The notes under the pieces were generated by a model that worked only from the letters and a program-made list of their open reading frames with translations, did no database searches and was not told where the DNA came from. From an uncultured Bacilli bacterium (GTDB lineage: Bacteria; Bacillota_I; Bacilli_A; RF39; UBA660): a DNA stretch of 64,000 nt. Numbering within the stretch: position 1 is the first letter of the stretch; each line of letters opens with the position of its first letter. The DNA lies in contig CALVSC010000001.1 of NCBI GenBank assembly GCA_944358855.1, positions 2,385-66,384 on the forward strand, in the 5' to 3' direction. Below are positions 38,358-49,444 of the stretch, piece by piece. Both the position numbers and the translations under genes were made by a program.

Positions 38358-39176
38358 TCAGTTTTTGTGCTGGCTTAGTTCAATATTTAGTTGTTTTAAA
38401 AGAGCGGTTTGTCTTGTCGTTCTACTTTGTTCTTTTGGTGATATAGTGTCTTGGTAATTTGCATATTGTATTTCTACTTCTGCTGTTTGCCATTGTTGTT
38501 CTTGTAGTGTTTTAGCAAGTTCTTCTTCTATTTTGGATTTTGGTTTTCTATTACTTCCATTTCTTAGCTCTGTTTGTAATCCTAATCTTTCAAATTCTAT
38601 ATCTAATAATTCGCTACAAGTTGATAAATATGTCTGATAAGCGTTCATTCTAGTCAATTTGTTTTCAAAACTAGAGATAGAAATAATTCCACTTTGGTAG
38701 TTTAGTTTGTCTTGAAAAGCTATTTTCTTAGTTCTCTTTTGTTCTTCTTCCACTAAAAGATGAGCCCAGGTTAATTTTAATTTTTCTATTCTTGCTATTA
38801 AATTAGGGTCTTCTAGAGATTCCATATAAGAAATTTCTTCGGGCATTACTTCTATTAATATTAATCTTAATATATCGTATATATCATATACTGTTTCATC
38901 TTCAATTATGTATGATTGCACTTCGTCCATTAATTCATAGAGTATTTCAGAAACTGTAAAGTCTTCTGCAGAGGGATTTTTTTTGTTATCTTTATTGAAT
39001 ACGGAAGTGCTTTTTAAATAATTTTTGGCATGCTTAATTGTTTTAGATAAAACTTCTTCTTGATCATCTGGTGTTAGAAATTGAAAGTTTTCACTTAATA
39101 GTTCTAACTCTTCTCCTTCGTATTCTCTATCTTCTATTAAAATGTTTATGGCAGAAATTATTTCGTCTTTTAACAT
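38358..39176 (-). CDS. member B of a tandem paralogous family (unknown function)
   Basis: Shares the C-terminal module W..EVxIQYANYQ...IS..E with five other genes in the window. Confidence 0.5.
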   Translation of the reverse strand: MLKDEIISAINILIEDREYEGEELELLSENFQFLTPDDQEEVLSKTIKHAKNYLKSTSVFNKDNKKNPSAEDFTVSEILYELMDEVQSYIIEDETVYDIYDILRLILIEVMPEEISYMESLEDPNLIARIEKLKLTWAHLLVEEEQKRTKKIAFQDKLNYQSGIISISSFENKLTRMNAYQTYLSTCSELLDIEFERLGLQTELRNGSNRKPKSKIEEELAKTLQEQQWQTAEVEIQYANYQDTISPKEQSRTTRQTALLKQLNIELSQHKN

Positions 39177-39231: not shown

Positions 39232-40104
39232 TTATCCTTTTTGATTTATTTTTGGTTCTTCAAATATGTTTTGACCTATATTTAAGCTTATGATTTGATC
39301 TAGAGCTTCACCCATTTTCTTTGTTGCTTCTTCTTCAGAAATAGTTCCTTCTAACATTTGTAGTTTTGCTTGATAGATTGTGGTTGTAGATTGATAATAT
39401 GTAATGGCAGTATTGATTTTATCTTGTTCGCTTTCTGGCATTACTGGGCTTCTAGATGATATCGTGTGTAATTTGCCATATTGTAATAGTGTTTCTTGTT
39501 TTTGAGATAGTAATTCCTGTAGATTCTGGTTAGATGTTAAATATTGTCCTCTTGCTTCTTCCGTTTCAAGAATGTGGTGGTATTCTTGGGAAGTGATCTT
39601 ATTTTTTTGATAATCACTTTGAGCTTTTTTTATTGTTTTGGTTGATTGGTTATAAGCTTCTAAGTAAGTAATTGTTTCCTTTTGCATGGTTAGTTTTATT
39701 TTACTTTCAGCTATTTCAATACCTTCTAGTGTTGTTATACTGTGTGCAGGATTATATAAGTTAATTAATTCAATTTGTTGTATTTCTGCTTCAGTTGCGG
39801 CAAGTATAGCAGCATTATATAAAGTAGCAAGTTCATTTATTTCTCCTAATGCAATTGCTTGGCTATTGATATCAAGTAAGTTTTTAGCAAGGATTGTAGA
39901 AAAAGGTGTTGATGTTGTTACAACTTTCCCTTTTTGAAATGGTGTAGATTTTTTTGTTAAATTTAATATATAAGTTATAAAACTTTGTTGTAAACTATCT
40001 AATTCTTCTTTTGATAATTCTTTTATTTTCTCATTTAATTCTTCTATTTTATTTTGATCTAATTCTTCTGTTATTAATATTTTTTTTAATGTTTCATTAT
40101 TCAT
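39232..40104 (-). CDS. member A of the same paralogous family
   Basis: C-terminal IYQAKLQMLEGTISEEEATKKMGEAL matches the family module. An AGGGAGGAA RBS is present. Confidence 0.5.
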   Translation of the reverse strand: MNNETLKKILITEELDQNKIEELNEKIKELSKEELDSLQQSFITYILNLTKKSTPFQKGKVVTTSTPFSTILAKNLLDINSQAIALGEINELATLYNAAILAATEAEIQQIELINLYNPAHSITTLEGIEIAESKIKLTMQKETITYLEAYNQSTKTIKKAQSDYQKNKITSQEYHHILETEEARGQYLTSNQNLQELLSQKQETLLQYGKLHTISSRSPVMPESEQDKINTAITYYQSTTTIYQAKLQMLEGTISEEEATKKMGEALDQIISLNIGQNIFEEPKINQKG

Positions 40105-40987: not shown

Positions 40988-42478
40988 TTATTTATGAATA
41001 TTAGAATTAGATTGTTTGGAAAAATGAAGCTTTGATAATAATTCACTAGTTATTTCTTCTGGGGATTTCTCTTTGGTATATTGAGTGATGGTCTTTAAAG
41101 CGTAATTACAATGACTAGAAAGAAAATGTCTATTATCTCTTTCTTGATTACTACCCTCTTCTATTTTTTTTCTTTGGTTTAGAATTGTTAGCGATTCTTC
41201 TTTATCTGTACTAGGCATTAATAAAACTACATTATGAAATTGTTGTATTAATTGTTGTATTTCTAAAAACATAATAGGATTTTCGTAGATAGAATGTCCT
41301 GCTCCAAAATCTATAATGGTGGGTTCTGATAAATTGGTTAATACGGATCCAGTTAAGAAAAATTCAAATTCTTTATTGTTTTTAAAGTTTTTGCGTTGTT
41401 GATATAGATATGATAGCTGTTTTCTATTGTCTAATGAGATTTTTGGCATATCTAATGTACTGGCTAGATGGTTAGAAATTGTTGATTTACCTGCACCCAG
41501 GGGGCCAATTAAAATAATGGAGTTATTTAGAACATCGTCACTTACTTGTTTATTTACAAGGCTTTCCATTTTTCTAATTGTTGTATATATGTCATAAATA
41601 TCTAAGCCAATTTCAATAAAAGATCTATTATCTTGTAGGCATCGCATTTTTTCTGTTTCTATTAATTCTTGTGGAATATTTTTTATGAACTTAGAATAAG
41701 TGTCAAATAAGAATAAAATTTTTTCTTCTTTTGATTTTTGAAATATTTCTAGTTTTTCTTGTAGTATAGAAGAAAACTCTGGATAATATTTTAGATATTG
41801 CGTTAATGCAGAACTTATAAATTGTTCTTTTGATGGATCTAACATTTGAAGGATAATAAACTTATCAAATATAGTAATTAGGTCTTCTTGACTGAAAGGA
41901 ATAAAGTTTGGATCTTTGGTACAAGCAAGTAAATTTACTTTTTCTAATAGGTTGGGATGTAAGAATAATAGTCTTTCAAATGTTTCATGAGTAAGGGGTC
42001 CTTTTTCTCTATTTGCTTGTCTTACTTCTGTTTCTATTAAATCCGTATCATCTAATGGGATATTTGCTGGTCTGTTAGGATAATGGTAGATTTTAATGAG
42101 TCCTTCTTCTTGGAGTTGTTTTATTTTTTGATAGACGTTTTCTATTTCTTCTTCTCTGATAATGTCTACATCTTTTTTTGAAACCACTTCAACAAAGCCA
42201 GTTTTAATATCTTGAAAACTATCACTACTTAAAGTATAAATAGATGCACTATTATTAAACATTGTTTCTAACCCTCTAGGTATTCGTTCTACTAGTTGCC
42301 ATGGTTGGTCAGAGGTTGTTTTAAATAATGAATAAGTCATATCATCTCCTGCCCTACCTGCAAAGATAATAGCTAGTTCTTTATGAGGTGTTGCGTAAAC
42401 ATAATTTCCATGGGTTGATTTATGAGGTTCTAGTTTCTTGATTCCACTTTTTGCACTTCCATGATATAAATATTCCAT
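40988..42478 (-). CDS. fusion protein: N-terminal Arr/KptA-like ADP-ribosyltransferase-fold domain + C-terminal P-loop small-molecule-kinase-like domain
   Basis: N-terminus LYHGSAKSGIKKL...HGNYVYATPHKELAIIFAG...SASIYTLSSDSFQDI matches the H/aromatic/acidic core of rifampin ADP-ribosyltransferase (Arr) and the Tpt1/KptA NAD-binding lobe. The C-terminus has Walker A IILIGPLGAGKSTIS and hhhhD IIDFGAG. Confidence 0.5.
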   Translation of the reverse strand: MEYLYHGSAKSGIKKLEPHKSTHGNYVYATPHKELAIIFAGRAGDDMTYSLFKTTSDQPWQLVERIPRGLETMFNNSASIYTLSSDSFQDIKTGFVEVVSKKDVDIIREEEIENVYQKIKQLQEEGLIKIYHYPNRPANIPLDDTDLIETEVRQANREKGPLTHETFERLLFLHPNLLEKVNLLACTKDPNFIPFSQEDLITIFDKFIILQMLDPSKEQFISSALTQYLKYYPEFSSILQEKLEIFQKSKEEKILFLFDTYSKFIKNIPQELIETEKMRCLQDNRSFIEIGLDIYDIYTTIRKMESLVNKQVSDDVLNNSIILIGPLGAGKSTISNHLASTLDMPKISLDNRKQLSYLYQQRKNFKNNKEFEFFLTGSVLTNLSEPTIIDFGAGHSIYENPIMFLEIQQLIQQFHNVVLLMPSTDKEESLTILNQRKKIEEGSNQERDNRHFLSSHCNYALKTITQYTKEKSPEEITSELLSKLHFSKQSNSNIHK

Positions 42479-42639
42479 TTTATCACCTACTTTATTACTT
42501 TTATGAGAATTATGTTTTTTAATATATTTACATTTTATTTGCTTGAACCTATTTCTATAAATACTATATCATAAGTAAATACTTTGGCAAATATTTTTAG
42601 TGTGCTTTTGCTTTTATACTAAAAAATTGGTAAAATAAG

Positions 42640-43626
42640 ATGAGAATTATTCTTGGAGAAATACTTTGGTGGTGTTGTAAAATGGATAATTTAGTTTCTA
42701 AAATCAATTTTTTTAGTAATAATGCATTATTTGAGGAAATAAAGGATAGCAATTCTGGAGCTATATTAAAAAAAGTTACAGATAATAATCAAACTTATTT
42801 TTTGAAGATTGTTTTTAAAGAAAATGTAGATGTTGTTAAAATAAAAAAAATAATAGAAATTTATGAAAAATATAATATCAATACTATTAAACTACTTGAT
42901 TATGGATATATCGATAATCAAGTATATTTAATTTATAATTTTATAGATGGCAAAGCTTTAAATACAGTCTATGATCAATATAGTCCAAATGATTATTATC
43001 ATATGGGTTTTAATATTGGTGATGGTTATCGAAAAATTAATTCAACACTTGAGTTTAACAATTATTTTATTAATGATTACAATATAAATGACTTAGTAAA
43101 TTACTATATAAAGTCTTTTCAACAATTGTATAATGGAAAACTATCTTATATAAAAGATATAATTTCAGAAGAAAAAATGAATGATATAATAAAAAGAATG
43201 AAAAGCCTTATTTCTTCCTTTGATAATGAAAAAAAAGTGTATATTCACGCAGATATGCACCCTAAAAATATAATGATTGATTGTAATCATAACTTATATG
43301 TAATTGATATTGAGTCTTTTTGCATTGATTATTTTATCATGAATGTAAGATGGTCTATCGCTGCTGCTTTTAAAAATAAAGAAAATAATGAATTCTTTAA
43401 AGGTTTTGTTAATGGTTATTATAATAATAATATTCCATTAAATTTTAATAAACAATTAATACTTATTTTAATATTTAATTTTATGGAACATACTATTGAA
43501 TTCAGTAAAACGAAAGATAAAGATTTTATTGTCAATTACGTTTCCCGGATAAATAAGATATTTAATAGTATCGATTTGTTTCAGGATGATAATATTTTAG
43601 AGAAGACAACTATATTTGATTCTTAA
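42640..43626 (+). CDS. aminoglycoside-phosphotransferase (APH)/choline-kinase-fold kinase
   Basis: Catalytic loop IHADMHPKNIMID and Mg-binding YVIDIE, plus an N-lobe K (YFLKIVFK). The true start may be the ATG at 42682. Confidence 0.65.
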   Translation: MRIILGEILWWCCKMDNLVSKINFFSNNALFEEIKDSNSGAILKKVTDNNQTYFLKIVFKENVDVVKIKKIIEIYEKYNINTIKLLDYGYIDNQVYLIYNFIDGKALNTVYDQYSPNDYYHMGFNIGDGYRKINSTLEFNNYFINDYNINDLVNYYIKSFQQLYNGKLSYIKDIISEEKMNDIIKRMKSLISSFDNEKKVYIHADMHPKNIMIDCNHNLYVIDIESFCIDYFIMNVRWSIAAAFKNKENNEFFKGFVNGYYNNNIPLNFNKQLILILIFNFMEHTIEFSKTKDKDFIVNYVSRINKIFNSIDLFQDDNILEKTTIFDS

Positions 43627-43645: not shown

Positions 43646-44728
43646 TTATTGAATGTTTTTTAAAAATTTGTTTATACTATGATACCATTTAAACATACCT
43701 AATTTTCTTTCTGCATATTTTTGAAATTCTGCTTCGCTATAATTTTTATTAATACTTTTCCATCTTTTTAAAACTCTTTTATAACAAGTTTCTATACTTG
43801 TTCTCATTACTATGATTTGTCCTTTTAATATAGAATAATCCTTTATATTTCTATATTGTGCGGAATCAATAATTATGATTTTATTACTATTTTTAAAATA
43901 TTCTAAAACTTTTAGATAGAATTCATCAAAATTAGTAAACAAATAATCCTTTGGTGTATCTTTAAATATTTCTCGTAATTGAACACACTCTTTATTATTG
44001 GATGGTTTATTACTAAAAACAATATCCGTATCTATTACAATATAATTATCATCATTTATATACTTTTTACTATAATATGATTTTCCACTACCAGATTCAC
44101 CTGTAATATTTATAATTTTGTCTTTAGTTATAGACTTTATATATGGTTTTTTATCTATAAATCTGCTTATCAATAAATCAGACTTTATTTCATATAAATA
44201 GGTTTCAATTTCTTCTACTAGATTATTTTCTTCTTTTTTATTGCTTTTGTTTCCATGCAATATAAAATCATTCCATTCTTCTAATGCTGTATCAATATTT
44301 TCTTTTTTTATTTTATCTTTTAGTATTTGATATGCTGTTTTTTGATAGTTCATAATACTTACTACAGCTAATGTTTTATAATATGATTTTTCTGGTATTT
44401 TCGAAATTTTGTAATAATGAAGAGCTGATTCGTCATTTACTTTTTTGGGATTACTTATCATTATTTTATTTGTTCTATATATTGTTGTGGCACCCTCTAA
44501 TTTAATATTTTCAGCATCTTCAGGTATTGTAACATCATAAATTGTATCTCCTCGATGTAACCATCTTACTATGCAGTCCTCACTACAATAATTAAAACCT
44601 CCGAAGTCTTTAGCTGTTGTAGCGTTGGGCTTCCAATTGGTTGCGATATTTACTTCATTAATTTTATATTGATAATTTGCTTTGGCTCCTGAAGTAGTGC
44701 CATACAAAACTTTTACATATTTTTTCAT
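43646..44728 (-). CDS. paralogous fusion: degenerate Arr-like ART-fold domain (His lost) + P-loop kinase-like domain
   Basis: N-terminus VLYGTTSGAKAN...TIYDVTIPEDAEN parallels Arr FYHGTKANL...YIYIVEPTGPFEDD but lacks the His. C-terminus has Walker A ITGESGSGKS and IIIDSAQ. Confidence 0.4.
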   Translation of the reverse strand: MKKYVKVLYGTTSGAKANYQYKINEVNIATNWKPNATTAKDFGGFNYCSEDCIVRWLHRGDTIYDVTIPEDAENIKLEGATTIYRTNKIMISNPKKVNDESALHYYKISKIPEKSYYKTLAVVSIMNYQKTAYQILKDKIKKENIDTALEEWNDFILHGNKSNKKEENNLVEEIETYLYEIKSDLLISRFIDKKPYIKSITKDKIINITGESGSGKSYYSKKYINDDNYIVIDTDIVFSNKPSNNKECVQLREIFKDTPKDYLFTNFDEFYLKVLEYFKNSNKIIIIDSAQYRNIKDYSILKGQIIVMRTSIETCYKRVLKRWKSINKNYSEAEFQKYAERKLGMFKWYHSINKFLKNIQ

Positions 44729-45553: not shown

Positions 45554-45627
45554 TGGTGCCGAAAGACAGAATTGAACTGTCCGCTGATCCTTACCAAGGA
45601 TCTGTTTTACCACTAAACTATATCGGC
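45554..45627 (-). tRNA. tRNA-Thr (anticodon GGU)
   Basis: Hand-folded cloverleaf GCCGATA-TA-GTTT-AGTGGTA-AAAC-A-GATCC-TTGGTAA-GGATC-AGCG-GACAG-TTCAATT-CTGTC-TTTCGGC-A-CCA. There is one U-U mismatch in the acceptor stem. Confidence 0.7.
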
Positions 45628-45638
45628 GTTTTTATTAT

Positions 45639-45713
45639 TGGTGTTCGAGACGGGAATCGAACCCATATCTTCTCCGTCGGAGGAAGAAATTCTATCCGTT
45701 AAACTACTCGAAC
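45639..45713 (-). tRNA. tRNA-Arg (anticodon CCG)
   Basis: GTTCGAG-TA-GTTT-AACGGATA-GAAT-T-TCTTC-CTCCGAC-GGAGA-AGAT-ATGGG-TTCGATT-CCCGT-CTCGAAC-A-CCA. The acceptor stem is perfect. GU pairs occur in the D and anticodon stems. Confidence 0.65.
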
Positions 45714-45755: not shown

Positions 45756-46631
45756 TTATTTTCTTGTGTATACTTTTCTACTTTCGTTTCTTTGAGCTAT
45801 GATTTGGTGTTTTCTGTTTTCTGCTTGGCCAATTTGTGTAATAGCATCTTGATTGGAAATTCTTCCTTCTGAAAGTAATAACCATGTTTGACTAGAGATT
45901 ACTTCTTGTTCTGCAAGTTGAACTCTATCATAGGCTTCTTGCCATCTTTCGTCTTGTCTTTGTTCGGTAGGAGAAACGTTTGTTCTATTTAACCTATTTT
46001 CTATTTCTTCTTTTTTTGTTCTTTCTTCTCTTAGTGCTCTTTTCGCAAAAACATAGCTTTTTCTTCTAGCTTCTGTTCTGATAATATCTTGTAGGTCATC
46101 ATCCGTTATTAGTCCTTGTGCATGTGCTTCTTTACTATTTGTAAGGGTTCTTTCTATTTGTTCTAAATCTTGTTCTGTTTTTACTTCGTTATGTATTCTA
46201 TCAAGTTTAATTTTTGAGTTTAATAAACTTATAAAACCAGGAGTTTGTTCTTGATGTTTATTACGTCCTTTTATAATTGTTTTTCTAATTAGTTTTCTTT
46301 CTTCTTCGATTACATCTAATTGTACTTTTCTAAGTAATGGTACTATTTTGGCATTTATATTATATTGTCTTACTCTTTTAATGACAGAGTTTAATGCTGT
46401 TAAAGTGGATGGTGTTACTAGTTGGATTCTTGTTTTTTGTTCTAGAGCTGATAAAACAGTACTTCTATTTGCTACATAATGATTGGTATATACTTCTAAG
46501 GCTGCTTTATATATAGCTTTTGTTTTTCCATCTAAGGTATCATAGCTATCGCTTATACTTATGATTTCTTCTGGTTGTAATTCTGTGATGTTATATAATT
46601 TTTTTATTTGTTCTAATAATTTGTCTTTCAT
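45756..46631 (-). CDS. member C of the tandem paralogous family
   Basis: C-terminal ...VQLAEQEVISSQTWLLLSEGRISNQDAITQIGQAE matches the family module. The N-terminal L..YNI..L.PEEI pattern is also shared. Confidence 0.5.
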   Translation of the reverse strand: MKDKLLEQIKKLYNITELQPEEIISISDSYDTLDGKTKAIYKAALEVYTNHYVANRSTVLSALEQKTRIQLVTPSTLTALNSVIKRVRQYNINAKIVPLLRKVQLDVIEEERKLIRKTIIKGRNKHQEQTPGFISLLNSKIKLDRIHNEVKTEQDLEQIERTLTNSKEAHAQGLITDDDLQDIIRTEARRKSYVFAKRALREERTKKEEIENRLNRTNVSPTEQRQDERWQEAYDRVQLAEQEVISSQTWLLLSEGRISNQDAITQIGQAENRKHQIIAQRNESRKVYTRK

Positions 46632-47548
46632 CTATATTCCCCCTCAACTTTGTGCTTGGTATATTCTATTGTTTTTTCATCTGTTGTTGTTTCTATTTTA
46701 AATTGATGTAATAAAGATTCCCCTATTAATTCTTGTGCATCATCATCACTTAACTCCCCTATTGCTACTTGATATTTAGCATATTGAATATTTACTTCTT
46801 CTTGTTGCCATGTAATCATACTTTCGTAAGACTTTAATTCTATTTGTTCTTCATCTGATAGTTTTATTCCTTGTAGTTCTTTTCTACCTTTTTTTAAATA
46901 TAAATCGTTTTGTTCCGATTGTAGATAAGTATAGTAGATAGATGCTGCGATATATTGTGAATAAAGGGTTACTTCTTTTTTCCTTTTTTCGTATTCTGCT
47001 GGTGATATTTTGCCATTATCAAATTCCTTTTCATTTATTGTGTCTTGCATATCAATAATCTCTGTTTGTCTTTGGAGATTTATTATAACCATTTCATATC
47101 CTATTTTATTATAGGCATATGCAAGAGCTAGTTTAACATATGGGTTTTCGGGATTTTGATTTTTTAATTCTTGTATCTTTTTTTGTTCTTCTCTTAGGGC
47201 ATATCTTACAACTCCTCGTAAATATGCAGTTAGAGATTCTACTTTGTATGTTTGACCTAAATAGTCATAGATATCATTTAAATTAAATACGATTTCTGGC
47301 GTGATTGGATTTACTTCAAATACATCTAAATTTGTTTCACTTTCTACATTAAATGGTGAATTAGTAGCAATATATCTATCTACATAATCTTTTAGTCTTT
47401 GTTCTAGATTTTTTCTTTCTTTTTTTGATGTTGAAAAAAATATAGTGCTTAGTTCATCAATTTCATCGTCTGTTATTGGATCTTTAGATAAGGCAATTGT
47501 AAATAAGTCGTATAGACTTTTCTTGGTTTTGTCCATATTATTTATCAT
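46628..47548 (-). CDS. member D of the tandem paralogous family
   Basis: C-terminal WQQEEVNIQYAKYQVAIGELSDDDAQELIGESLL. Its stop overlaps the next gene's start as ATGA. Confidence 0.5.
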   Translation of the reverse strand: MINNMDKTKKSLYDLFTIALSKDPITDDEIDELSTIFFSTSKKERKNLEQRLKDYVDRYIATNSPFNVESETNLDVFEVNPITPEIVFNLNDIYDYLGQTYKVESLTAYLRGVVRYALREEQKKIQELKNQNPENPYVKLALAYAYNKIGYEMVIINLQRQTEIIDMQDTINEKEFDNGKISPAEYEKRKKEVTLYSQYIAASIYYTYLQSEQNDLYLKKGRKELQGIKLSDEEQIELKSYESMITWQQEEVNIQYAKYQVAIGELSDDDAQELIGESLLHQFKIETTTDEKTIEYTKHKVEGEYR

Positions 47549-48434
47549 TCCTTGGTGTTTTTTGATATGTTTTTGGTGTAGGGTTTGGTGTTAGTGCTTT
47601 ATTTTGAATTTCATTACATTGCTCTTCTGATATAATTCCGTTTAAATAATCACAGTATGCTGATTGACATAGTATCGTTCTATTACAATAATCAAGATCT
47701 TTATGCATTTGTTCAATATCGTCTTCTGAAAATGGTTTATCTCTTCCAGTTGATGCACTCATTTCATTTAAAAAGATAGCACGATTATAATTTGTTCTTA
47801 AACTGATTCTTTCTTTTTCTGATAACAGTCTAGTCCTTTCAGCGTTTAATATTTTTACTTCTTTATGATATTCCGCAGCTTCTAAAGAGCGTGTTGTGAA
47901 TCCTTGTTCTAGCTTTTGTTTAGTACCTTCTATTATATATATTCTTGTGTTTATTACTTCTGTATCTAAATCAGATGATAAAGAAAGATCATCTAAAGCA
48001 AGCATTACATAATAATCTGGATAAGTTAGTAAATCTTTTCCTAAAGATTTTCTTCTTTTCTTAATCGTATCTAATTCTTCTTTCATAGCTCTTTGTTTTA
48101 GTGAACTAACTAATAAGTAAACATCCTCACCTGGATGATAATAGTCTAATAAGGTGTCTAGGTTTTTACATATTTTTTTAGATGGAAGATCTTCTTTTAT
48201 AGCTGGCATATAAAATCTATCTTGACCGTTTTCATCACTATAAATACTTTCACTAGCAACTCTTTTTTGTATTACTTGTTCTAATTCAGACATCATTTTT
48301 TGTTTATGAAATACTCTTATTTTAGCAGGTAGTTTTTGATGGGTTAACATAAACTTATAAATTTCTTCAGGGTTTTTCATTGTCATGATGTTTGATAGAT
48401 AAAAAATAATATCATCTTTTTGCATTCTCTTCAC
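47538..48434 (-). CDS. member E of the tandem paralogous family (divergent)
   Basis: C-terminal YLNGIISEEQCNEIQNKAL, with a family-like N-terminus. Overlaps D by 11 nt. Confidence 0.45.
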   Translation of the reverse strand: MKRMQKDDIIFYLSNIMTMKNPEEIYKFMLTHQKLPAKIRVFHKQKMMSELEQVIQKRVASESIYSDENGQDRFYMPAIKEDLPSKKICKNLDTLLDYYHPGEDVYLLVSSLKQRAMKEELDTIKKRRKSLGKDLLTYPDYYVMLALDDLSLSSDLDTEVINTRIYIIEGTKQKLEQGFTTRSLEAAEYHKEVKILNAERTRLLSEKERISLRTNYNRAIFLNEMSASTGRDKPFSEDDIEQMHKDLDYCNRTILCQSAYCDYLNGIISEEQCNEIQNKALTPNPTPKTYQKTPRNDK

Positions 48435-48520: not shown

Positions 48521-49444
48521 TCAAATATTGCGCTTTGGCAATTTTTGCTTTTTGGAGCCTTCATTGTGTTGAGAAGTTTCAATCATTGCTTGTTCTAGAA
48601 GAGATGCTCCAATTACTTCTCTTCTTTCTTCTTCTGGTAAGTTATGTGATAGAAATTGCCAGTTTGCATAGGTAATTGCAACTTCTTGTCTTAACCATTC
48701 TGCATGGAGTTTTAATTCACGTTCATGTAAGATACAATTAGGATTAATATTGGCACCAAGTAATTCATACTCATTTTGATTAGATAGATGGTAAAATGCA
48801 TAATTTAAATTGTAATCTGTAAATTCTACGATGGTATCCAAGTAGTCCATGTAGGCTTGTTCTTGTTTTAAATAGTCTAGATATTCTTGTTCTGATATAG
48901 CTTTGTGATCATACTGGAATCTTAAGTTGTGTTGTTTATAAATGGTATTATGTTGTTGTTCTGATACTTCTGCTTTCTTTTTATGGGTTTCTAACATTAG
49001 TTTTTTAAATGCTAATAGTCTTTGCAATGATTTGTTATTTGTAATCATTGGTTTTAGTTCTTTCATTTTAGCATTTAAAAAATTTAATTCTTCTTGATAT
49101 CCAATAATATATACACGATTCATTAGGCGTACAATATCATTTTCCGTTTCTTCTTGATCAGGATCTTCTATTACTGTTTTCATGATGGATTCTTGTTTTG
49201 CTAGTAATTGTTCCATGGTGGTGGTTGGTTCTATGTATTGTAATACATCTGTTGGAAGTATAGCAAATTGACTATTGGTTCTAATGTATGATTTCATAAA
49301 ACTTTTTAGTTTTTCTTCTAGTTCTGCTCTTGTATTTGGTGTTTGAGCTAAAAATGTATTGTTGATATCTATAACGGTCTCGGGAGGGATGGGTTCTTTG
49401 GTAAATAATCTTTGTAACATGTGATATAATTCTTGTTTTTTCAT
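48521..49444 (-). CDS. member F of the tandem paralogous family
   Basis: C-terminal WLRQEVAITYANWQFLSHNLPEEERREVIGASLL. N-terminus is similar to D. Confidence 0.5.
   Translation of the reverse strand: MKKQELYHMLQRLFTKEPIPPETVIDINNTFLAQTPNTRAELEEKLKSFMKSYIRTNSQFAILPTDVLQYIEPTTTMEQLLAKQESIMKTVIEDPDQEETENDIVRLMNRVYIIGYQEELNFLNAKMKELKPMITNNKSLQRLLAFKKLMLETHKKKAEVSEQQHNTIYKQHNLRFQYDHKAISEQEYLDYLKQEQAYMDYLDTIVEFTDYNLNYAFYHLSNQNEYELLGANINPNCILHERELKLHAEWLRQEVAITYANWQFLSHNLPEEERREVIGASLLEQAMIETSQHNEGSKKQKLPKRNI

Follow-up and report, generated by a model that had tools for sequence, protein, structure and literature searches.

Enzymes with the ADP-ribosyltransferase (ART) fold have central roles in resistance to antibiotics (Arr) and the repair of RNA (Tpt1), as well as in toxins, anti-CRISPR activity and defence against phages. 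Among kinases, the shikimate kinases (SKs) bind shikimate through the arginines of their FRxxE motif and LID, and AAC(6')-Ie/APH(2'')-Ia is known as a bifunctional antibiotic-modifying enzyme. Here we describe a gene from an uncultured Bacilli bacterium of the UBA660 lineage (assembly GCA_944358855.1, contig CALVSC010000001.1) whose product carries an ART-fold domain and an SK-like kinase in a single polypeptide. The window, by which we mean the whole 64,000-nucleotide stretch of DNA that was analyzed (contig positions 2,385 to 66,384), encodes this fusion on the minus strand at 40988..42478, with an ATG start, 496 amino acids and a stop codon at 40988-40990 according to the open reading frame (ORF) list. 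A first-pass annotation of the sequence had read the gene as an Arr/Tpt1-like ART joined to a P-loop small-molecule kinase, and its ORF and all of the strings it quoted were recovered: LYHGS at residues 4-8, HGNYVYATPHKELAIIFAG at 23-41, SASIYTLSSDSFQDI at 77-91, the Walker A string IILIGPLGAGKSTIS, and IIDFGAG at 388-394. The protein consists of an ART-fold domain, a helical domain and an SK-like kinase domain, and this architecture is real and conserved.

Among 5.8 billion proteins searched, ~40 clusters of full-length fusion homologs with 40-63% identity were identified, and a protein identical to the fusion (P0001) is present on 5-6 metagenomic contigs. Given these ~40 homolog clusters and the invariant key residues in both end domains, the gene is not a chance ORF. 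The full-length AlphaFold2 (AF2) model has a predicted local distance difference test (pLDDT) score of 93.5 and a predicted template modelling (pTM) score of 0.84, and its high pTM points to a defined packing of the three domains. No literature was found on an ART fused to a P-loop or shikimate kinase, in agreement with the earlier view that this is not a described family. By sequence comparison, the fusion is placed outside the Arr, Tpt1, AroK/AroL, chloramphenicol phosphotransferase (CPT) and zeta-toxin families, and the family of its N-terminal domain is absent from Pfam save for a distant link to DUF6886.

The ART-fold core covers residues 1-131 (42086..42478; all features of the gene are on the minus strand), with strands at residues 3-8, 24-30, 49-52, 60-64, 78-84, 98-100, 104-112 and 128-131. 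It has the split beta-sheet of the ART fold and its structure matches include RES, DarT and MbcT at lower Z; from these matches we conclude that the first-pass assignment of an ART fold is correct. The residue pattern, as far as sequence can define it, is that of a His-Tyr-acid ART, with an HG[ST] ending strand 1, a Tyr in strand 2 and a Glu entering a hydrophobic strand. The YHGS motif (Y5-H6-G7-S8, 42455..42466) occupies ART position 1 at the end of strand 3-8, and the VYAT motif (V27-Y28-A29-T30, 42389..42400) occupies position 2 in strand 24-30. F39 is located 11 residues past Y28, and PARP1 has the same Tyr-to-aromatic spacing of 11 positions in Y896/Y907. Two acids are candidates for position 3: the non-significant alignment to Arr described below points to the region of E64, and strand context points to E97. 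No pair of residues in the superfamily is more conserved than E64 and R65 (42284..42289), which are candidate catalytic or NAD (nicotinamide adenine dinucleotide)-binding residues. E97 (42188..42190), where strand 98-100 (E-V-V-S) begins in the model, is the candidate Glu for position 3 and may be the catalytic residue.

Conservation follows these motifs closely. In the fusions, Y5, G7, S8, F39, E64, R65, Y81, F88, E97 and E109 are each found in 40/40 sequences, H6 in 40/41 and Y28 in 39/40. Across 109 divergent members of the superfamily, E64 and F88 are kept in 100%, H6 and Y81 in 98%, Y28 and E97 in 96%, S8 and A29 in 94% and R65 in 90%, and Y5, H23, V27, F39 and E109 are also among the conserved positions. 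The core is followed by a conserved C-terminal extension of the ART module at residues 132-188 (41915..42085), made up of YPNRPxxIPxDDxDL and two helices ending in LHPxL. P134, D146 and the HPxL motif of this extension are kept in stand-alone relatives of ~190 amino acids, and the pattern across the superfamily is YPxRPxxIPxDDSDL...HPxL. The sole strong viral structural match of the N-terminal domain is an uncharacterized 317-amino acid protein from a Megaviridae environmental sample (BFVD A0A5J6VI63, Foldseek E 5.7e-9, TM 0.63).

Membership in Arr or Tpt1, which the first-pass annotation had proposed along with the fold, did not hold at the level of sequence, with no significant match to either family. 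PDB sequence searches with the N-terminal domain (single sequence and two profiles) returned nothing significant, and Arr was not retrieved by the profile search. Known Arr structures include 2hw2, 9iaf and ARR-2 (9iba). When the superfamily was compared to authentic Arr sequences the hhalign probability was 2.3%, and there was no match to Pfam Arr-ms. The relaxed, non-significant Arr alignment is collinear, placing YHGS on LHGT (hhalign), H6 on H19, Y28 on Y49 and LVER on IVEP, with a similar C-terminal helix-strand. The His and Tyr of the Arr H19-Y49-D84 set have counterparts in this alignment, while the D84 loop falls on a non-conserved stretch after E64. The proposed equivalence of SASIYTL..SFQDI with Arr YIYIVEPTGPFEDD was not reproduced; in the one collinear alignment obtained, Arr IVEP lies opposite LVER (E64). 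Compared to Arr, the family of the N-terminal domain has in addition an ER motif and a conserved extension of 55 residues.

Tpt1 chains were the only non-artefact PDB matches of the broad profile, at a non-significant E of about 0.5, in an alignment that pairs YHGS with YHGT, VYA with VHV and Y28 with the second His. Tpt1 carries an N-terminal RNA-binding lobe, with its YHGT at ~92-98, whereas the ART strand of the fusion begins at residue 3; position 2 is His in Tpt1 (H-H-h) and Tyr in the fusion family, which also has the conserved E64-R65 and E97. Pfam PTS_2-RNA was not matched by the fusion or by its N-terminal domain. Compared to ARTs of the H-Y-E clade (PARP catalytic domains, diphtheria toxin/exotoxin A), the N-terminal domain is much smaller and is without helical regulatory or targeting domains, and no sequence similarity to these enzymes was detectable. 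Against Pfam at E<=10, with the Arr-ms and Tpt1 models among those considered, the N-terminal domain alone gave only a sub-threshold match to DUF6886 (20.1 bits against a cutoff of 27, residues 52-121). Within the superfamily, DUF6886 (PF21820) is matched by 13/82 members (best E 2.8e-8) and ART-PolyVal (PF18760) by 2/82; no other Pfam family gave recurrent weak matches, and most members match nothing. Because the window protein falls below the cutoff though 13/82 members match, we consider DUF6886 to be related, not the same family, and no literature on DUF6886 was found. The fold result agrees with three weak independent sequence signals, namely the Tpt1 profile matches, DUF6886 and ART-PolyVal.

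At the other end of the protein, residues 311-496 (40991..41548) form an SK-like P-loop kinase domain (KIN). Pfam SKI (PF01202) matches residues 328-484 with 27.8 bits against a cutoff of 22.1, over profile positions 2-158 of 159. The Walker A GPLGAGKST (residues 325-333, 41480..41506) has K331 in 37/37 family members, and ISLD (residues 347-350, 41429..41440) has S348, L349 and D350 each in 36/36, with D350 aligning to the second Asp of the SK DxD motif (SK structures 4y0a and 2pt5). At residues 388-399 (41282..41317), IIDFGAGHSIYE contains a Walker-B-like Asp and a GAGHSxYE motif that replaces the SK GGG motif; this region aligns with 'STGGG' of the SKs, and GAGHSxYE also occurs in cyanobacterial tandem kinases. 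F391-G392, H395, Y398 and N449 are invariant (36-37 of 36-37). The kinase-type P-loop fold proposed for the C-terminal domain is thus supported by a PF01202 score above its cutoff, but the CPT/zeta-toxin type proposed with it is not, as neither CPT nor zeta toxin is the closest sequence or structural family. The kinase head is closest to small-molecule kinases and not polynucleotide kinases, and SKs score clearly above nicotinamide-riboside kinase (NRK).

KIN is nonetheless distinct from the AroK/AroL enzymes. The NCBIfam scan gave no match for the N-terminal domain and only P-loop-region matches in the kinase part, where the best AroK/AroL equivalog model reached 23.6 bits against a cutoff of 195. 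KIN has family motifs of its own (DFGAGHSxYE, PS and NxHF), and in an alignment to the Aquifex aeolicus SK (2pt5) the FRxxE Arg falls on a gap and the Arg of the LID (KERPLL) is not kept. With these shikimate-binding arginines absent, KIN would be expected to phosphorylate a hydroxyl of a non-shikimate low-molecular-weight compound, and it should be an SK-fold kinase with a different hydroxyl-bearing substrate. Its nearest relatives are found among unassigned stand-alone kinases and the tandem kinases of cyanobacteria, and KIN is widespread alone (~185-260 amino acids) and as KIN-KIN tandems in cyanobacteria. Cyanobacterial proteins P0111-P0120 (~370-385 amino acids), annotated as 'shikimate kinase', are KIN-KIN duplications of this non-AroK family, and since they contain its DFGAGHSxYE motif the annotation is probably wrong.

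Between the two heads lies a family-specific helical middle domain (MID, residues 189-310, 41549..41914) for which no Pfam or PDB relative was detected. The AF2 model has nine helices across residues 146-308 and is all-helical there with high confidence. The ~180-residue helical linker of the first-pass annotation is therefore helical as described, but its first ~40 residues are part of the ART-superfamily module. D283 and R285 of MID are nearly invariant. A BLAST overlap with the cyanobacterial tandem kinases led us to consider MID as a degenerate kinase, which was rejected at an hhalign probability of 1.3%. MID pairs with either head, in 61 ART-MID clusters, 39 ART-MID-KIN clusters and 9 MID-KIN clusters.

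A profile search with the N-terminal domain covered 1.84 billion representative proteins. The superfamily comprises 813 clusters at 50% identity, 314 of them at E<=1e-10, and consists mostly of stand-alone proteins of ~185-200 amino acids that are annotated as hypothetical and have no Pfam family or name. It is concentrated in uncultured low-GC gut Bacilli, and in species-representative genomes the close family is limited to uncultured host-associated Bacilli, 'Tenericutes' and Erysipelotrichales metagenome-assembled genomes, among them Ca. Ventrenecus, Ca. Fimihabitans, CAG:582 and CAG:956. Loci from 39 species include 15 with the full fusion, which was seen only in uncultured gut Bacilli, ~20 with ART-MID and no kinase within 5 kb, and 3 that are disrupted. 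The ART-like domain has other partners elsewhere: it is fused to GNAT acetyltransferases in three independent cases (P0151, P0185 and P0201), to GrpB (P0215), directly to a different P-loop kinase (P0213), and to an E1-like ThiF in a ThiF-ART protein at L132:4555-5799.

Some members of the family are broken. At L032:4968-6508 and L047:4989-6488 the fusion gene is interrupted and reads as two or three neighbouring ORFs, such as a 205-amino acid ART-MID and a 291-amino acid MID-KIN, and as such splits are seen in two species, some database 'MID-KIN' proteins may stem from disrupted genes. One frameshifted stand-alone ART-like gene occurs in four metagenome samples (L083:2449-2915, L087:3038-3504, L137:1395-1861 and L174:3452-3918), broken at the conserved VER motif. 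An alternative genetic code was ruled out for these split ORFs, which represent a fixed pseudogene in one lineage.

The reading we favour, though only tentatively, is that the fusion is a cytoplasmic enzyme with two heads, one for ADP-ribosylation and one for phosphorylation, both acting on the same or related small molecules or peptides. The first head (residues 1-188) would be a minimal His-Tyr-acid ART that binds NAD+ through H6-G7-S8, Y28 and F39, with E64-R65 and/or E97 assisting transfer of ADP-ribose to the acceptor. The second head (residues 311-496), with its intact Walker A Lys and D350 as the predicted substrate-hydroxyl Asp, would phosphorylate a non-shikimate hydroxyl, and MID (residues 189-310) would fix the heads relative to each other and probably take part in substrate binding. 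The role of such an enzyme would most likely be xenobiotic, antibiotic or metabolite modification, analogous to Arr and bifunctional antibiotic-modifying enzymes. The data themselves show the folds, the conserved motifs, the architectures, the distribution and the genomic contexts, from which we infer the use of NAD+, the catalytic acid, the substrate class and the coupling of the heads. The fusion partners (GNAT, GrpB, kinase and ThiF) and scattered neighbours, such as the APH gene of the window, give a hint of a small-molecule or peptide substrate.

Genomic context offers little to suggest a toxin or defence role. Loci of stand-alone ART-like genes were gathered with a degenerate DNA motif (41 dereplicated groups) and considered along with the 39 species loci of the close family. 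No conserved operon or neighbour was found among the 39 species loci beyond local synteny, and no conserved immunity or antitoxin neighbour was found in either set. Stand-alone kinase genes had no ART neighbour. A PADLOC scan of the window protein returned only generic P-loop matches (E>=7e-4), PHROG gave no family match beyond generic P-loop similarity, and the protein has no secretion or delivery domain, starting directly with the ART strand at residue 3. With no immunity or antitoxin neighbour conserved, no PADLOC or PHROG match beyond generic P-loop similarity and no delivery domain, a toxin or defence role is disfavoured. A neighbour census counted GNAT genes at 5-8/150 and radical S-adenosylmethionine (rSAM)/SPASM genes at 9/150, with scattered neighbours including NUDIX, ASCH with His_Phos_1, and GNAT.

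Several points weigh against a two-headed enzyme acting on small molecules or peptides. From the sequence there are two candidate catalytic glutamates, E64 or E97, and no single assignment. The neighbour associations are anecdotal and none is conserved family-wide, and Firmicutes commonly carry GNAT and APH genes. The ART fold also includes some NADases and pseudoenzymes. Furthermore, because the modules are mostly found as separate, non-adjacent genes, coupling on one substrate is not required.

Other explanations were weighed against the same evidence. The heads could act in sequence with Tpt1-style chemistry, where the kinase phosphorylates a hydroxyl (an RNA or DNA end, nucleotide or metabolite) and the ART then ADP-ribosylates that phosphomonoester, leaving it capped as phospho-ADP-ribose or removing it as ADP-ribose cyclic phosphate. 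We consider this unlikely: with the ART domain starting at residue 1, neither the RNA-binding lobe nor the Arg/His tetrad is present, the residue at position 2 is a Tyr and not the His of H-H-h, and the conserved Glu residues hint at H-Y-E chemistry. The resemblance of the kinase to small-molecule and not polynucleotide enzymes, the ~20/39 species that have ART-MID without a nearby kinase, and the lack of RNA-ligase, 2H or Macro neighbours in the neighbour surveys all argue in the same direction. A two-step 'phospho-ADP-ribosylation' of a MID-held target is quite doubtful. Here the kinase would phosphorylate a small molecule, peptide or nucleic-acid end held by MID and a Tpt1-like head would add ADP-ribose to the phosphate or, in the reverse order, ADP-ribosylation would come first and be followed by phosphorylation of the ADP-ribose. 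This proposal treats the superfamily as a small-molecule/peptide ART clade that includes the rSAM/SPASM-cluster members, and if true, those members would imply ADP-ribosylated ribosomally synthesized and post-translationally modified peptides (RiPPs).

Alternatively, the ART could target a macromolecule (protein, RNA or DNA) as a regulator or toxin-like effector, with the kinase and MID serving target recognition or regulation. Most characterized relatives by fold (PARPs, bacterial toxins, AcrF11 and Rhs TreX) do modify proteins or nucleic acids, one stand-alone member sits beside a ParE/Phd pair, and Fic and integrase genes are near some members. Even so, we find this rather improbable, as 80 loci contain no conserved antitoxin, immunity or Macro/ARH partner save for the ADP-ribosylglycohydrolase at L055, there is no secretion or delivery domain or PADLOC match, the gene is chromosomal and apparently monocistronic, and the fusion partners are metabolic-type transferases. 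We also give little credence to the possibility that the ART-fold domain is not a transferase, acting instead as an NAD+/ADP-ribose sensor, an NAD+ glycohydrolase or an NAD-salvage-related enzyme partnered with a ribosyl or nucleoside kinase. A parallel for the last of these is NadR, in which an NAD-pathway domain is joined to an NRK of the same P-loop fold. However, SKs outscore NRK for this kinase, the strictly conserved H-Y-E-type residues favour catalysis over mere binding, and no NAD-biosynthesis genes are found near the examined loci. Finally, the N-terminal ART likeness could be coincidental, leaving a kinase with an unrelated N-terminal domain, which is very improbable beside the structure matches of this domain.

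Though not conserved across the family, several neighbourhoods of ART-like genes were recorded. In 7/41 groups a rSAM/SPASM peptide-maturase-like gene is directly upstream, on the same strand, of a stand-alone ART-like gene, as at L136:3832-5727, L164:877-2572, L063:361-3063 and L169:7830-9487. The rSAM/SPASM gene is nearest to DynA and anSME, below all cutoffs, and is preceded by an overlapping 81-amino acid ORF; C39-peptidase ABC exporters recur downstream in 3-4 loci. These loci look like a RiPP-type cluster containing an ART-fold protein. We ruled out that the radical-SAM neighbour is housekeeping HemW beside lepA, as the enzyme is rSAM/SPASM peptide-maturase-like. At L055:582-8561, stand-alone member P0163 is part of a co-directional cluster with two APH kinases, an ADP-ribosylglycohydrolase, a YbaK-like tRNA_edit protein, two tandem-ABC ATPases and a methyltransferase. 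In two Ca. Ventrenecus-like loci (L010:3932-6927 and L012:3904-6930), ART-MID overlaps its upstream gene by 4 nt (L010) or abuts it (L012), which suggests that ART-MID is translationally coupled to this 690-698-amino acid gene. No relative of the upstream gene turned up in Pfam or the PDB, and a 73-amino acid ORF and an ATP-grasp (ATPgrasp_ST) gene follow.

The window itself is part of a low-GC (~28%) Firmicute chromosome, neither phage nor plasmid, with genes that include MutS, AlaRS, MurC, XseA, a GerA spore-germination protein, ABC exporters and two tRNAs. The fusion gene is preceded by a Shine-Dalgarno AGGTGA read from the sequence 4 nt ahead of its ATG (42483-42488, minus), and further upstream by a promoter-like site, TTGCCA-16 nt-TATAGT with an extended -10 TG (42563..42590, minus), a consensus match only. 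Directly upstream and divergent is an APH-family phosphotransferase gene (42640-43626, plus; PF01636, 35 bits), and the gene on the other side, a 162-amino acid ORF, is convergent; with this arrangement of flanking genes the fusion gene appears to be monocistronic. Beyond the APH gene, at 43646-44728 (minus), is a gene for a 360-amino acid protein with an unrecognized ~190-residue N-terminal domain and a P-loop AAA_18/AAA_22-like domain, which was ruled out by comparison as a paralog of the kinase head of the fusion. The fusion, APH and 360-amino acid P-loop genes are kept together on other contigs of this species.

The locus is also flanked by weakly related paralogous ORFs at 38358-39176, 39232-40104, 46628-47548 and 48521-49444, all on the minus strand, with 45756-46631 and 47538-48434 probably being further members of the set. 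These encode Glu/Lys/Gln-rich proteins of ~270-307 amino acids with 21-28% identity (E down to 1e-12), and have no match in Pfam, PHROG or PADLOC. A tRNA-Thr(GGT) and a tRNA-Arg(CCG) lie side by side at 45554-45713 (minus) in the middle of the unannotated genes, and this island around the tRNAs may be a variable region.

The fusion gene reveals a large, unnamed and strongly conserved ART-fold superfamily, and the fusion partners point to small-molecule or peptide chemistry, not the usual protein and nucleic-acid targets of ARTs. If the protein is active, it could stand for a so far unrecognized class of gut-microbiome enzymes that modify drugs or metabolites, for a novel modification derived from NAD, or for the first case of a single polypeptide that couples a kinase to an ART. 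The fusion protein is directly testable because it is small, soluble-looking and confidently modelled. Among the known systems, AAC(6')-Ie/APH(2'')-Ia is a functional analogue with different folds: like the fusion, it unites in one polypeptide two autonomous group-transfer domains, each of which is also encoded by genes of its own.

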